From an uncultured Gammaproteobacteria bacterium (GTDB lineage: Bacteria > Patescibacteriota > Patescibacteriia > PEXW01), in assembly GCA_964486505.1 (NCBI GenBank), contig CAZAMC010000001.1, positions 26,748 through 90,747 of the forward strand: 64,000 nucleotides of DNA, written 5' to 3'. Of the stretch, positions 2,575 to 7,371 are shown piece after piece. The translations under genes were made by a program, and so were the position numbers. The first letter of the stretch is position 1, and every line of letters starts with the position of its first letter. The notes below the pieces were generated by a model, which saw nothing but the letters and a program-made list of their open reading frames with translations, ran no database searches and was not told the DNA's origin.

Positions 2575-2697
2575 CGTCATTGCGACCCCCATGAGGTCGT
2601 TGTTCAGAAACCACGAAAGAGCCAGCATAGCCAGCATTTAATAGCGTCAGTAAATGGCTCAGTTGAGCCATTTTGGCTTACCTTAGCCATATTTAGT

Positions 2698-2726
2698 CTT
2701 GACACAGTATGCACAGGCGTGTATAC
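2698..2726 (+). promoter_or_regulatory. Consensus sigma70-type promoter (TTGACA-17 nt-TATACT)
   Basis: Direct read: ttgaca cagtatgcacaggcgtg tatact. No convincing long ORF lies downstream; the repeats and small ORFs follow. Confidence 0.5.
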
Positions 2727-2915
2727 TGCTCCGTTACGTTGAAAATCTAGCATTTCCCCTAGTAGTCCAGTTTGCCGAAAGAGAGAGCGGCCAGCCGGAC
2801 AAGCCCAATGTTGCTATTGGGCGTATCCCAGGTGCTCTCTCGCAGAGGACCTGCGTTTTGTGTGCAGCGATATGGAGGGGGTTGTGCTTACGAAAGTAAG
2901 CGCAAGCGAGATGTG

Positions 2916-3020
2916 AGGGAGCGGTATCGCGTGGGGTTTACTCCACAAAGACACTTAACCTTCGTTGGGGTGCGGGCTTCGGTCCAAAGCACCCTACGTC
3001 TCACCTCCAGATCGTTACGC
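2916..3020. repeat. Copy A of a ~100-nt direct repeat (shared 38-nt identical core ggagcggtatcgcgtggggtttactccacaaagacact)
   Basis: Aligned by eye to copy B at 3075-3185, roughly 85 percent identity. Both end with tcacctccagat. Confidence 0.6.
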
Positions 3021-3074
3021 GCAATCGCCCATGCAATTTGACAATTCTTTCTATCAACTTGGAGGCGAATTTTT

Positions 3075-3185
3075 CGATGGAGCGGTATCGCGTGGGGTTT
3101 ACTCCACAAAGACACTCAACCGTCACTCGGGCGTGGGCTTCGGTCCAAAACGCCTTTCACTCACCTCCAGATTGATGGAAGGAAC
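3075..3185. repeat. Copy B of the ~100-nt direct repeat
   Basis: See copy A. Spacing between copies is about 60 nt. The reading frames differ between copies, which argues against a protein-coding repeat. Confidence 0.6.
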
Positions 3186-3208
3186 ATGATTTTATTCTCG
3201 GAGGATGT

Positions 3209-3415
3209 ATGGCAGTTGTTGAGTTCTTACGGCGTAGTCTGCGGTATCTCTATGGGGCACTGCTTCTTATGACCATTCCGGATGAATGGTTTCACGCAGA
3301 GATGGTAGTGCAGGGGATATCCCAACCGAGTATCTGGCGTTCGCGTCAGGATTACATGGGTGGAGCACTACTCTACCGCGCATCGTTTACAAGGGCGTTG
3401 CATTACTTTCAGTAA
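3209..3415 (+). CDS. Hypothetical small protein (68 aa)
   Basis: Strong RBS ggagga 5 nt upstream of ATG. No recognisable domain. Confidence 0.2.
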   Translation: MAVVEFLRRSLRYLYGALLLMTIPDEWFHAEMVVQGISQPSIWRSRQDYMGGALLYRASFTRALHYFQ

Positions 3416-3717
3416 TCGCTACCCCAGTTGACCTTTGGGCAAGAGAGTTGGATGAAACCTTCTCTCTTTCTCATCCCGAACGATCTTCATCGAAGGTCAC
3501 TCGAGATGAGCAACATTTCCCTCTTCGATATGGAGGGGTTTGGGTACTGGTGGTGCTAGCATTGCGGCGGGTTTCACTCGCCAAAAACGTTTGGCCCATC
3601 ACCGCGCATCGCAGCTTCGGCTGCAAAGGTGCGCACATGTCCAGGGGTTTCCCCTGGCTCTCTTGCCCACGCCTCCAGATCGAAGAAGGAAAACAAGAAT
3701 CTCAAAGCGAGGTAGAT

Positions 3718-3972
3718 ATGCAGATCATAAGACTGTTTCGTGCGGTAAAGACGACTGTCCGATGGCAATACGAAGAGTACCAGCATCGCAAAAGGCAGCG
3801 AAAAGCGTGGCAAGATACCATCCGCACAATCGACCAGTATATGGCCGAAGCGCGGGAAAAACGCTTCCGGTATTCAGAAGCCGGTCTGACCAAGGCGGTC
3901 CTTCGCATGCACAGGTTTGAATTGAGGTTGGTGTTCGCGAAGGAAATCTGCGTGGCGATGTTGAGTCGCTAA
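3718..3972 (+). CDS. Hypothetical small basic protein (84 aa)
   Basis: RBS gaggt 4 nt upstream of ATG. Helical, Lys/Arg-rich sequence, no recognisable domain. Confidence 0.2.
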   Translation: MQIIRLFRAVKTTVRWQYEEYQHRKRQRKAWQDTIRTIDQYMAEAREKRFRYSEAGLTKAVLRMHRFELRLVFAKEICVAMLSR

Positions 3973-4002
3973 GCAATTACCAAATCCAGTTAAGGGAGGA
4001 AA

Positions 4003-4125
4003 GATGATAGCATTGTTCATTTCAGCAAGCGTGGTACTGGCCATCGTCATTCTATACTCGGTGGTGTACTACCGGGTGATAACTGCGGTCAGTTCGTGCG
4101 TTGCTAAGTTCGCCCCGTTGCGCTA
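4003..4125 (+). CDS. Hypothetical 40-aa hydrophobic peptide (MIALFISASVVLAIVILYSVVYYRVITAVSSCVAKFAPLR)
   Basis: RBS agggagg 5-6 nt upstream of ATG. Single predicted TM helix. Not in the ORF track because it is under 60 aa. Confidence 0.3.
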
Positions 4126-4347
4126 AGCGGGAAGAGGTAAGCAGGAGCCTTTGTTCTTATCCTGCACTTCCCTCAAACGGTTTCACGACGAAGCCGGGTG
4201 AGGGAAGTAAAAAAATTACGGCTGGTGTGGCGAGGGGCCACCGGATGATAGCCCGGAGCGAAGGAACGCTCGGCACGCAAGTGCACAGGGATCGAAACCC
4301 TTCCAGCCTACAAAATGTTCCAGCGGACTCCCTGCCGCTGGTTTACC

Positions 4348-4387
4348 GAGAAGGGCAGCCAATAGTGTTGCTCCGGCTGCCCTTCTC
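4348..4387 (+). promoter_or_regulatory. Perfect 13-bp stem / 14-nt loop hairpin followed by T-rich tract (candidate terminator/attenuator arm)
   Basis: gagaagggcagcc-aatagtgttgctcc-ggctgcccttctc, then tttctc. Its 3' side overlaps the 5' arm of the downstream leader hairpin, so the two structures are mutually exclusive. Confidence 0.4.
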
Positions 4388-4431
4388 TTTCTCCCCCAAG
4401 CGTTGAAATACTTCGACGGGTGGGGGAGAAG
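4383..4431 (+). promoter_or_regulatory. Leader hairpin element copy 1 (ttctccccc...gcgttgaaatacttcgacgggt...gggggagaa), ~35 nt upstream of the ATG of the 4465 gene
   Basis: Outer stem is ttctccc/gggagaa, with an inner 7-bp stem cgttgaa/ttcgacg. The core is 30/31 identical to copy 2 at 4949-4979. Confidence 0.5.
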
Positions 4432-4464
4432 ATAAGAAAAAGTGAACATAAAAGGAGGCAGTGT

Positions 4465-4893
4465 ATGCGGAAGTTTTTGCTGGACGTGCTGATAATTTTC
4501 GCATTTATCGAAGTCTATCTGTTGTTCGTGGTGGCCTCCATTGACATACTGCCCTTTGCGTATGTCAGTGGCGTGACCTTCTCCGGGTATGTGTGGGCAA
4601 GTTTATTCATCGTTGTGACAATTACGGTCCTACGGTGGGCTCGTAAGAAGCTCGCCGTACGTGACGATGAGTATTTCTTGAAGCTCAAGTACCATTCGGA
4701 AACGTGCAGCGTGGCAATTTTTGTCTTGCTTGCCTGGGAAACCGGCAAAGCTTGGTACATCTGCGGATTGCCCGTGGTCCTCCAGTGCCTATGGGGGATC
4801 ATTACATGTGTCGTGGTCACAGCGTTTGTTGGAATAGTGGTCAGGAGCCATCTCAAACAGAGATACCAGCGCATCCTTTCGGCGCAGCGATAA
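4465..4893 (+). CDS. Small polytopic membrane protein (about 4 TM), hypothetical
   Basis: RBS aaggagg 7 nt upstream of ATG 4465. Hydrophobic segments LLDVLIIFAFIEVYLLFVVA, VWASLFIVVTITVL, VAIFVLLAW and LWGIITCVVVTAFVGIVV. Confidence 0.55.
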   Translation: MRKFLLDVLIIFAFIEVYLLFVVASIDILPFAYVSGVTFSGYVWASLFIVVTITVLRWARKKLAVRDDEYFLKLKYHSETCSVAIFVLLAWETGKAWYICGLPVVLQCLWGIITCVVVTAFVGIVVRSHLKQRYQRILSAQR

Positions 4894-4936
4894 AAAGATT
4901 CTTTGGAAAAGTGGCGAGTTGCACCTGCAGCTCGTC

Positions 4937-4979
4937 CTTCTCCCTCACGCGTTGAAACACTTCGACGGGTGGGGGAGAA
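4937..4979 (+). promoter_or_regulatory. Leader hairpin element copy 2, ~32 nt upstream of the ATG of the 5011 gene
   Basis: ccttctccctcacgcgttgaaacacttcgacgggtgggggagaa has the same nested hairpin as copy 1. Confidence 0.5.
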
Positions 4980-5010
4980 ACACAACAGAACCCACTATCA
5001 AGGAGGATAC

Positions 5011-5433
5011 ATGCAAGGATACCGGCATGTTTTCGAAGGATCACTCTTCATGCTTGGGTGCTTCACTGGGGTGACCTGTGTCATCCTGCTCATGAACCCC
5101 AGTGTGGACGCGCTGCAATTCGTGTGGCAGTACGGCCGTTTCCCGTTTGGCATTGTCATCGCTGCTCTCTACCTAGGAGCGCGAGGTATAGCCTGTACAC
5201 GGACGGAGTTTATCTCGTACAGTCGGGTTGTACTCTTCGTCATCGGGGGGCTGTTCACACTCTTCGGTGTGATTAGCACCGTGGGGAACCTCGTCGGCGA
5301 CGGTACCCAGGATCAAACACTGAATACAGCGTCGGTACTCGCGGTCGGAGCAGCAATGCTTACTGTCAGCTGGTTAACCCGGCGCATTGCCGGCACTTCC
5401 TGCTGGCCACAGGTAAAATCAATGCTCTCGTAG
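5011..5433 (+). CDS. Small polytopic membrane protein (about 4 TM), hypothetical
   Basis: RBS aggagga 5 nt upstream of ATG 5011. Hydrophobic helices throughout. Confidence 0.55.
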   Translation: MQGYRHVFEGSLFMLGCFTGVTCVILLMNPSVDALQFVWQYGRFPFGIVIAALYLGARGIACTRTEFISYSRVVLFVIGGLFTLFGVISTVGNLVGDGTQDQTLNTASVLAVGAAMLTVSWLTRRIAGTSCWPQVKSMLS

Positions 5434-5728
5434 GTCATTGAGGAAGGTGAGTGACATAGGATTGTCGCTCGCCTCTCTCCCAGAGTCCCGCAGTGCGGGA
5501 TTGCGGGAGGGGCTTGCAACCGTAAGGCACGGGCCTATACTCGAGGCGCCTCCTCTGCCCCCGCCCACCGGATACCTTCCTACGATCTCAGGTTTGAAGA
5601 AATCCACTAGGACTCTCTCCCTGCTGGATAGACGTGAACCCGGGTATTAGTCGCACGGTATCGGTGGGCAAGGACAGAGGGGAAAGAGAGAGCGAAAGCA
5701 CCACGCTTGATAAAAGCGTGGTTTTTTC
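5434..5728 (+). ncRNA. Candidate structured leader/cis-regulatory RNA or sRNA ending in an intrinsic terminator immediately upstream of murJ
   Basis: No credible ORF in the region. GC-rich paired segments include ctcccagagtcccgcagtgcgggattgcgggagg. It ends in the terminator at 5700-5728. Confidence 0.3.
5700..5728 (+). terminator. Rho-independent terminator (9-bp stem accacgctt / aagcgtggt, loop gataa, then TTTTTT)
   Basis: Direct read. It lies 18 nt before the murJ ATG (5746) and inside the TTG-started ORF of the track, so it forces the later start. Confidence 0.6.
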
Positions 5729-5745
5729 GTATTCTGCATCCACCT

Positions 5746-7371
5746 ATGTGGACGAAACTCTGGACAAAACTCTCCACCACTATCCTTGGCGGAGCCATCG
5801 TTATTGGCTTTACGGGCATCATTAGCCGGTTCCTGGGGTTGCTCCGTGACCGGCTTCTGGCCAGTGAGTTTGGCGGTAGCGGTGCGCTCGACCCGTACTT
5901 CGCTGCATTTAAGCTACCCGACTTCATCTTTAACGTCCTCGTCCTGGGGGCGCTTTCGTCTTCGTTCATTCCAGTTTTTGTTCAGTACCTGAAGAAAGAA
6001 GAAGGTGGCCTCACACGAGATAGCGAAGCGTGGCGCATTGCGAACTCTGTGCTCAATCTCTTGCTCATCGTTCTCATTGGACTCGGCATTCTCTTCTTCG
6101 CTTTTGCCAACCAGCTCGTCCCCCTCATCGCCCCGGGCTTTTCCGGAGAGCAATTGGAAACGACAATCCACCTAAGCCGTATCATGTTGGTGGCAATTAT
6201 TTTCTTTGGCGCGAGCAATATTGTTTCGGCAATCCTTAACTCCTTCAAGCGCTTCTTCGCGTTCGCGCTAGCGCCGGTTCTCTACAACCTCGGCATCATC
6301 TTGGGCATTGTGGTCTTTGTCCCGAAGTGGGGGCTTGTCGGGCTTGCTTACGGTGTGGTTGTGGGCGCCTTTGCGCACCTGGTCATACAGCTACCAGGCG
6401 TCTTCCGAGTGGGCTTTCGGTACCAACGCATTCTGGATCTGAAGCACGCGGGCGTGAGGCAAATTGGCAAGCTCATGTTACCGCGAACATTTGGTTTGGC
6501 GGTTAATCAAATTGACCAGCTGGTGAGCACCATCATTGCCTCGGGCCTTGCTGCTGGGAGCCTGACGCAATTCAACTTTGCGAATAACCTCCAGAATTTT
6601 CCAATTAATGTGTTTGGCGTTTCTCTGGCCATTGCGGTGTTCCCAGCATTTTCCGAAGCGTATGCGGCAAAAGATATGCAGGCTTTTGTCGTACACTTTT
6701 CTCGAACCGTTCGCCGCTTGTTGGTTGTCATGATCCCGGCCTCGATCCTGCTTCTCATTCTGCGGGCGCAGATTGTGCGGGTGGTCGTGGGCGCACAGGC
6801 TTTTGACTGGGACGCCACCTACCAGACAGCCCAAGTGCTGGGCTACTTCACTCTTTCCATTTTTGCTCAGGCGCTCATTCCCATCCTGGCACGGTCGTTC
6901 TACGCTCTGCACGATACGGCAACTCCGGTGAAGGTTGGCATTGTGGCTGTTGCGGTTGACATTGCCGCCGCCCTCAGCCTGGCGCCGCGGTATGGGGTCA
7001 TTGGTCTAGCGCTCGCTTTTTCCATTTCCAGTTTGGTAAACATGCTGAGCCTCTACATTATTCTTCGGCGCCGCATAGGGGACTTGGACGATGCACGCAT
7101 TTCTCGCACGACCCTAAAAATTGTGCTTGCCTCGTTGGTGGCAGGCGGGGTGGCGTGGTTGGTACTGCGCTTTGCCGCGCTCGGTGTTGATATGCGCTCG
7201 CTCGTTGGCATCTTCTTGCAAGGTTTCGTTGCGGGGTGTGCCGGAATTTTTGCCTTCCTCGTTGCGGCCTCGATCTTGCGGGTTGAAGAGGTGCAAGTTC
7301 TGCATAGCTGGTGGAGACGGGTCGTGGCATTCCTTCGCAATGGCTCGCGTAACGGGACCGTTCAGCCATGA
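5746..7371 (+). CDS. murJ: Lipid II flippase MurJ (MviN)
   Basis: FAAFKLPDFIFNVLVLGALSSSFIPVF is the MurJ N-terminal signature. The protein has about 14 TM segments, and the C-terminal region is also typical. Start is placed at the first ATG after the terminator. Confidence 0.85.
   Translation: MWTKLWTKLSTTILGGAIVIGFTGIISRFLGLLRDRLLASEFGGSGALDPYFAAFKLPDFIFNVLVLGALSSSFIPVFVQYLKKEEGGLTRDSEAWRIANSVLNLLLIVLIGLGILFFAFANQLVPLIAPGFSGEQLETTIHLSRIMLVAIIFFGASNIVSAILNSFKRFFAFALAPVLYNLGIILGIVVFVPKWGLVGLAYGVVVGAFAHLVIQLPGVFRVGFRYQRILDLKHAGVRQIGKLMLPRTFGLAVNQIDQLVSTIIASGLAAGSLTQFNFANNLQNFPINVFGVSLAIAVFPAFSEAYAAKDMQAFVVHFSRTVRRLLVVMIPASILLLILRAQIVRVVVGAQAFDWDATYQTAQVLGYFTLSIFAQALIPILARSFYALHDTATPVKVGIVAVAVDIAAALSLAPRYGVIGLALAFSISSLVNMLSLYIILRRRIGDLDDARISRTTLKIVLASLVAGGVAWLVLRFAALGVDMRSLVGIFLQGFVAGCAGIFAFLVAASILRVEEVQVLHSWWRRVVAFLRNGSRNGTVQP

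Follow-up and report, generated by a model that had tools for sequence, protein, structure and literature searches.

A conserved rod-shaped RNA upstream of murJ in one Patescibacteria clade is probably a separate small RNA gene

The region upstream of the lipid II flippase gene murJ in the stretch of DNA analysed here (64 kb; the window) is probably a separate small RNA (sRNA) gene, whose hairpin-shaped product of about 180 nucleotides (nt) would be transcribed from its own promoter, end at its own terminator and lie head-to-tail before murJ. This reading is drawn from sequence comparison, in which the region has a predicted promoter of its own, a structure supported by compensatory changes and no coding character. 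An earlier note on this DNA had offered two explanations, a transcription-attenuating riboswitch that controls murJ and an independent sRNA gene, and it is the second that gains support from a −10 box at a fixed distance from the RNA in eight of ten genomes, a fold backed by covariation and an intrinsic terminator in most of the genomes. The RNA family is most likely previously undescribed, narrowly distributed and otherwise of an ordinary kind, that of small structured RNA genes.

To our knowledge, the non-coding RNAs described for Patescibacteria (CPR) are very few apart from the universal ones, and a literature search for non-coding RNAs of these bacteria found nothing relevant. A promoter-to-terminator sRNA gene with covariation support would offer a handle on RNA-based regulation in reduced, uncultivated bacteria. 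The features discussed are listed with their coordinates in the window.

2575–5745: clade-specific island (3.2 kb) between a DUF4012 gene (343–2574) and murJ, from comparison with sister lineages
5445–5474, + strand: hairpin A, a 12-bp stem in the MFE fold, just past the stop of a small membrane-protein open reading frame (ORF; 5011–5433)
5475–5511, + strand: hairpin B, CUCUCCC-AG-AGUCCCGC...GCGGGAUU-GC-GGGAGGG
5514–5541, + strand: predicted sRNA promoter from a consensus scan (−35 TTGCAA at 5514–5519, 16-nt spacer, −10 TATACT at 5536–5541)
about 5548–5690, + strand: conserved rod-shaped RNA, from covariance models R1 and R2 and covariation
5549–5576 with 5658–5683, + strand: covarying closing helix of the rod
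5610–5621, + strand: invariant apical sequence GGACUCUCUCCC, a candidate interaction site
5684–5690, + strand: purine tail GAGAGAG, the 3′ end of the conserved block
5700–5727, + strand: intrinsic terminator, where the RNA (about 180 nt) is predicted to end
5707–5735, + strand: predicted murJ promoter from a consensus scan (−35 TTGATA at 5707–5712, 17-nt spacer, −10 TATTCT at 5730–5735)
5746–7371, + strand: murJ (lipid II flippase), 541 aa, ATG start, Pfam PF03023

Fold, conservation and distribution of the RNA

The conserved RNA is an unbranched rod of about 135 nt (5549–5683), in which a closing helix, a 5 × 6 internal loop, a middle helix, a 6 × 6 internal loop and an apical hairpin follow one another. 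The full region from 5434 to 5745 (312 nt) folds at −147.7 kcal/mol, compared with −109.3 ± 5.2 for shuffled sequences (z = −7.4), whereas the opposite strand reaches z = −5.4. In an alignment of ten sequences 93.9% of the cells are standard pairs, a percentage that is inflated because the alignments were fitted to the model, and 18 of 46 pairs covary with substitutions in both partners; shuffles gave 4.5 ± 1.7 and controls with slid partners 2–5, all counted on alignments of the same kind. The closing helix holds 13 of these 18 pairs; in the divergent genome L093, for example, CCGGGUU/AACCCGG replaces the CCCACCG/CGGUGGG of the other genomes. The middle helix is conserved in sequence and shows little covariation, so its pairing is predicted. 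The same fold came out of an independent MAFFT/RNAalifold analysis of six sequences, and about 40 G-U cells, which would turn into A-C mismatches on the opposite strand, fit the + strand only.

At the apex of the RNA, the 12-nt sequence GGACUCUCUCCC is identical in all ten sequences, including those of L093 (46% GC) and L095; at its centre is an 8-nt loop, ACUCUCUC (5612–5619), and the flanking stem (UAGG/CCUG) covaries, with the pair at alignment positions 71–84 occurring as AU, UA, GU and UG. As a separate observation, a GAGAGAG heptamer complementary to the CUCUCUC of the invariant loop is found between the RNA helix and the terminator in five of the ten genomes (the window, at 5684–5690, L095, L002, L001 and L115) and is missing from L003, L004, L005, L083 and L093; it directly follows the helix in all but L001, in which the two are about 110 nt apart. 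The complementarity may reflect a pseudoknot or an alternative pairing.

The description of this region as ORF-free in the earlier note stands in a loose sense. Mechanical ORFs are present at 5438–5650 (+ strand, 70 aa) and 5419–5607 (− strand, 62 aa). The former was rejected as a protein-coding gene: it is interrupted in relatives by 1-nt indels and stop codons, has no Pfam match and shows 71, 35 and 41 substitutions at the three codon positions, so that third positions are not favoured. Similarly, the GC-rich paired segments that had been pointed out are present at 5475–5511, but they belong to a repeated hairpin module and not to the conserved RNA.

Covariance model R1, which was built from six sequences, and the broader model R2 place one copy of the RNA per locus in each of ten distinct related Patescibacteria genomes, in every case upstream of murJ and on the same strand; the window has exactly one. 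Contigs collected through MurJ homologues had added L093, L095 and later L115 to this set. A comparative alignment of murJ upstream regions, as the earlier note had recommended, has brought out a conserved RNA with a covarying structure in ten genomes. Further afield, R1 found no RNA in 71 more distant MurJ loci and R2 found none in 90 loci, a metagenome pattern scan yielded only two true matches and one new genome, and two scans of viral contigs did not find the RNA.

No family in Rfam 15 matched the 64-kb window at the gathering threshold. At E ≤ 10, the segment 5300–5850 and two divergent members of the family matched only miRNA-type hairpin models far below threshold, and for this reason ydaO, 6S and SRP are not supported; the Infernal/Rfam scan that had been suggested returned nothing meaningful at either threshold. 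Two local resemblances were considered and rejected. GGUUU-GAAG-AAAUC can be read as an SRP-like GNAR tetraloop hairpin, but the consensus pairs GGUUUG with the 3′ strand and there is no SRP match; and the 3′ strand GUCGCACGGUAUCGG is similar to domain V of group II introns, but lacks a local hairpin, the AGC triad and an Rfam match. ARAGORN detected no tRNA and no tmRNA in the window.

Promoter, terminator and the separation from murJ

The predicted sRNA promoter ends 7 nt 5′ of the conserved helix, and the RNA is predicted to start at about G5548, one base 5′ of that helix. The −10 box (TATACT, or TATAAT in L093) keeps a constant distance from the helix in eight of the ten genomes and the sequence upstream of it diverges; TTGnnn hexamers resembling a −35 box lie 16–18 nt upstream of the −10 box in the relatives. 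In L004 and L095 there is no convincing −10 box at the expected place.

At the other end, the earlier note had described a clean terminator with a 9-bp stem and T6, 18 nt before the murJ start, and inspection of the sequence and scans alike bear this out. The hairpin at 5700–5722 on the + strand (ACCACGCTT-GATAA-AAGCGTGGT) has nine pairs, five of them G-C, and a 5-nt loop in the consensus scan; it runs into T6 at 5722–5727, and 18 nt separate the end of the T-run from the murJ ATG, which is at 5746 rather than 5747. When the definition is made strict (a stem of 8 bp or more, a loop of 3–8 nt, and T6 or longer no more than 2 nt away), it is the sole match on either strand of the 64-kb window, against a mean of 0.08 in shuffles. 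A loose terminator pattern showed no enrichment over the first 20 kb (24 matches, compared with 23.4 expected from shuffles). The hairpin lies on the same strand as the conserved RNA and at the 3′ end of its predicted transcription unit, 14 nt past the closing helix. In essence it is what the earlier note had raised against its own proposal: the hairpin ends an unannotated gene that lies upstream on the same strand, and that gene here appears to be an RNA gene.

Relatives also have a terminator at the equivalent place. L001, L002, L083 and L095 have a homologous terminator common to all four, CCGTNCGG-loop-CCGTGCGG-T6, 3′ of the RNA and at most 20 nt from its helix in three of them; beyond it come 100–290 nt of an unrelated, hairpin-rich spacer and then the murJ promoter block. 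In the window and in L115 this spacer is missing, and a hairpin built around the murJ −35 box ends the RNA. Because four relatives share a terminator right after the RNA followed by the longer spacer, the compact RNA–terminator–murJ layout of the window is probably a derived state. The remaining genomes vary: the hairpin that follows the RNA has no U-tract in L004 and a weak one in L003, and in L093 a weak hairpin that lacks a U-tract comes after the RNA, and then a Shine–Dalgarno site and an ORF of 117 aa, so that in this genome the RNA would be a 5′ leader.

murJ has a putative promoter of its own that is interlocked with the terminator, the −35 box lying in the loop and 3′ arm of the hairpin and the 17-nt spacer containing T6. 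This promoter is part of a second conserved block directly before murJ, CTTGATAAAAGCGTGGTTTTTTCGTATTCTGCA...ATG, which reads as a sigma-70-type promoter: each of the 12 relatives examined has TTGAHA-17-TAnnCT 10–14 nt upstream of the ATG, and L097 and L100 retain the hexamers though they lack the T6. A hairpin over the −35 box is formed by four different, mutually complementary pairs of arms in five of the ten genomes, namely that of the window, CCGUACUU/AAGUACGG in L115 and L005, GCCCUU/AAGGGC in L004 and AUGCUU/AAGCAU in L083; in L001, L002, L003 and L095 it is weak or missing. Transcription of murJ is predicted to start at about 5742, leaving a leader of about 4 nt, and because the promoter hexamers hold both the 17-nt spacing and the distance of 10–14 nt from the ATG in every relative, the murJ mRNA seems to be nearly leaderless and to start after the hairpin. 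This arrangement suggests that the promoter of an essential cell-wall gene is near-leaderless and physically interlocked with a terminator. We also observed that murJ has no Shine–Dalgarno site, that its −10 box ends 10 nt before the ATG and that the ATG sits within a small UCCAC/GUGGA hairpin.

The terminator had also been placed inside a TTG-initiated ORF, and the mechanical ORF 5707–7371 does contain it. We rejected TTG 5707 as the start codon of murJ. In L003 an additional base between the two codons breaks the frame, so the extension is non-coding, and a database protein of exactly 541 aa (P0001) agrees with the ATG start at 5746 and is identical to the product read from it; the TTG-extended murJ is likely an annotation error, which is corrected here. 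An exact-protein look-up of the window's MurJ found nothing on record, and its closest relatives (75–90% identical) come from Patescibacteria metagenome-assembled genomes, one of them labelled Candidatus Kerfeldbacteria.

Together, these elements would work as follows. The sigma-70-type promoter at 5514–5541 would drive constitutive transcription of the rod, which would stop at 5700–5727 to give an RNA of about 180 nt, and murJ transcripts from the promoter at 5707–5735 would start downstream of the hairpin. The hairpin would both end the sRNA and shield the murJ promoter from transcription arriving from upstream, with no on/off switching of murJ. Some effect in cis may still exist in the window, because read-through of the terminator would run on into murJ.

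Alternative readings of the conserved RNA

The same layout could be that of a cis-acting leader, with the rod as the sensor of a riboswitch or of an attenuator responsive to protein or RNA, and the hairpin and T6 as the platform that decides read-through into murJ–lepA. Such a leader would account for the constant position of the RNA upstream of murJ on the same strand in ten genomes, for the short distance of 18 nt between terminator and ATG in the window and L115, for a murJ without a Shine–Dalgarno site and for the upkeep of the −35 hairpin with four arm pairs in five of ten genomes, even where there is another terminator upstream (L083); the sequence-conserved internal loops could make a binding pocket. 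We nevertheless judge it unlikely. No riboswitch family, ydaO included, appears at E ≤ 10, and a shared transcript with a conserved expression platform overlapping the sensor was not found: the spacer that separates RNA and murJ is non-homologous among the relatives, with lengths of 46–480 nt, and in L093 it holds the complete 117-aa gene with its Shine–Dalgarno site and a strong terminator of its own. By inspection, the RNA has no antiterminator complementarity to the 5′ arm of the terminator; the conserved promoter lies downstream of the hairpin stem; the hairpin itself is absent or weak in four genomes; and the rod is unbranched, with both ends tied up in a long covarying helix. The riboswitch or attenuator for murJ that the earlier note had put forward fares badly on the same grounds (no Rfam aptamer, the variable spacers, the intervening gene of L093 and the conserved murJ promoter), and its c-di-AMP (ydaO) version is excluded, as RF00379 gave no match at E ≤ 10. 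The likeness to ydaO/yuaA and other terminator-type riboswitches is that of a structured RNA upstream of, and on the same strand as, a cell-envelope gene, with a terminator near the start codon in the window; unlike them, the present RNA forms an unbranched rod, not a pseudo-symmetric fold of several helices, matches neither RF00379 nor another riboswitch, has no conserved expression platform and is separated by variable spacers, one of them with a gene, from a murJ that has its own promoter. EAR (eps-associated RNA) is a processive-antitermination RNA inside polysaccharide operons. The present RNA resembles it in being embedded in a cell-envelope gene cluster (GT4, DUF4012 and MurJ) just before terminators, and differs in showing no family similarity and in having a predicted promoter of its own and being itself terminated.

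Other readings keep the RNA apart from murJ but deny it the status of a dedicated sRNA gene of this clade. It might be a structured leader or processing element that stabilizes or processes a polycistronic island transcript, not autonomous and mostly bereft of its ORF, given that many conserved structured modules precede small ORFs in the surrounding island, that L093 has a Shine–Dalgarno site and an ORF about 40 nt past the RNA and that the CUCUCCC motif of the loop is shared with the 5′ arms of hairpin B; yet nine of the ten genomes have no ORF between the RNA and murJ, most have a canonical terminator 3′ of it, the RNA has its own −10 box and is single-copy whereas the other modules are multi-copy, and its strong conservation despite ORF loss argues for an autonomous role. 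We regard this as quite improbable. The chances are slimmer still that it is a housekeeping RNA in divergent form, for instance a 6S-like binder of RNA polymerase or another protein scaffold in a CPR version missed by Rfam. The size of about 140–180 nt, the long covarying closing helix that joins the 5′ and 3′ ends, the rod shape and the concentration of conservation in the middle of the RNA recall 6S RNA, and no 6S, SRP, tmRNA or RNase P gene was seen in the 64-kb window. The distribution, however, is very narrow, and the RNA is absent from the sister-lineage locus and came with an inserted island. Instead of a large central bubble there are only two internal loops of about 5–6 nt per side, the invariant apical loop sets it further apart from 6S, and neither the 6S model (RF00013) nor the SRP model gave anything at E ≤ 10; for SRP (4.5S; RF00169), the expected GNAR tetraloop of domain IV is replaced by the 8-nt loop. 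That the conserved block works at the level of DNA, as an imperfectly palindromic recombination or insertion site and not as a functional transcript, strikes us as the least credible of these possibilities. It would fit the position of the RNA, which is always at the murJ-proximal boundary of a hypervariable island whose other end has a different conserved block. Against it, frequent G-U pairs and one-sided changes suit pairing of a + strand RNA only, the block is flanked by a promoter and a terminator, an invariant 8-nt loop and internal loops are needless for a cruciform, and no recombinase gene is nearby, the island ORFs having no Pfam matches. A separate sRNA gene remains the reading that we prefer.

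The surrounding island and a possible role in trans

The island is found in the window's clade, where it measures 2.1–4.5 kb (L095 and L098 included). In sister lineages, with MurJ proteins 60–66% identical, the gap between the DUF4012 gene and murJ is 3–17 nt, and neither the RNA nor the island was found. murJ would formerly have been co-transcribed with the upstream gene and would have needed a new promoter once the island arrived, and the insertion would explain why murJ needs a promoter of its own. Three zones can be told apart: at the 5′ end a conserved, structured block preceded by a strong promoter, in the middle a variable stretch with small ORFs, and at the murJ end the sRNA studied here. 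The ORFs of the middle zone have no family matches (Pfam gave no match for island ORFs, and only DUF4012 for the flanking gene), include some predicted membrane proteins and are interleaved with repeated hairpins.

Hairpins A and B both lie outside the conserved RNA. Hairpin B, and hairpin A at least in L083, are copies of a repeated intergenic module that occurs several times per genome in the relatives, where hairpin B copies usually lie about 25 nt before the Shine–Dalgarno site and ATG of small ORFs. L083 has three copies of hairpin B (4441–4576, 4920–4956 and 5280–5358) and also hairpin A (4418–4443), in which a C-to-U change retains the pair as G-U; BLAST blocks at 5446–5485 and 5449–5487 of the window match L003 and L083 at 92–95%. 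The pattern CTCTCCC[AT]G occurs on the + strand of the window in hairpin B and in the sRNA loop only, and the island is rich in GGGAGRG arms complementary to that loop.

Our best guess is that the RNA works in trans and makes contact by way of the invariant C/U-rich loop at its apex, which is the most speculative step of the proposed mechanism. The partner could be purine-rich GGGAGAG-type sequences, abundant in both the hairpin modules and the ribosome-binding regions of the island, or a protein that recognizes the loop. A duplex scan of the apical loop against both strands of the window gave no enrichment and no outstanding target at translation starts, and the best non-self match was antisense to a coding region. 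A more specific proposal would make the RNA a dedicated trans-acting regulator of the undescribed, RNA-rich, hypervariable island in one Kerfeldbacteria-like Patescibacteria clade. Its loop GGACUCUCUCCC would mimic the CUCUCCC 5′ arms and would invade, or compete for, the GGGAGRG 3′ arms or the protein that binds them, and so co-ordinate the variable small membrane-protein genes, each of them preceded by a module. Taken as a whole, this chain of steps is unlikely to be right.

RsaE/RoxS of Firmicutes are terminator-ended, trans-acting sRNAs with C-rich or C/U-rich loops. The present RNA is similar in being a stand-alone gene with a predicted promoter and an intrinsic terminator, and in having an invariant pyrimidine-rich loop motif that could pair with purine-rich, Shine–Dalgarno-like sequences. 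It differs in that there is no similarity in sequence or model, in that a nearly fully paired rod of 135 nt takes the place of a few short hairpins, and in its restriction to one Patescibacteria clade.

The island contains several more conserved RNA structures, and this RNA-rich island is possibly more noteworthy than the sRNA itself. Near its 5′ end, in the region 2699–3190, is a strong predicted promoter at 2699–2727 (TTGACA-17-TATACT, 11 of 12 matches). A second structured RNA family lies 3′ of it in three copies (2870–3014, 3057–3174 and 3528–3682), which are closed by UGGAGG/CCUCCA and contain GAGCGGUAUCGCG, a covarying hairpin, CAAAGACAC and a GGGCUUCGGUCC hairpin. The family is also present in L002, L003, L095 and L098, directly 3′ of the DUF4012 gene; 14 of its 35 predicted pairs covary among seven sequences, and no Rfam family matched it. 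Downstream of the second and third copies lie small ORFs (3209 and 3718) that have ribosome-binding sites but are not conserved.

Further modules are found in the middle of the island. A 42-nt hairpin, UUCUCCCCC...GGGGGAGAA, occurs in two copies (4389–4430 and 4937–4985, 91% identical), each about 30 nt before the Shine–Dalgarno site and ATG of a small membrane-protein ORF (4465–4893 and 5011–5433, respectively); it has no U-tract and is 80–92% conserved in L001, L002, L003, L004 and L083, more than the flanking coding DNA. The repeated hairpins were rejected as integron attC sites, for which the GTTRRRY/RYYYAAC cores are lacking. A conserved non-coding block at 4141–4315, which includes a hairpin with 19-bp arms (4166–4208), is 80% identical to L083 2952–3120 and is found also in L002 and L098. 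Just upstream of this block, the ORF at 4004–4126, whose strong ribosome-binding site reads AAGGGAGGAAAG, encodes a hydrophobic, single-helix peptide of 40 aa; the island of L098 likewise has a called ORF of 40 aa, and the peptide resembles a type I toxin in form only.
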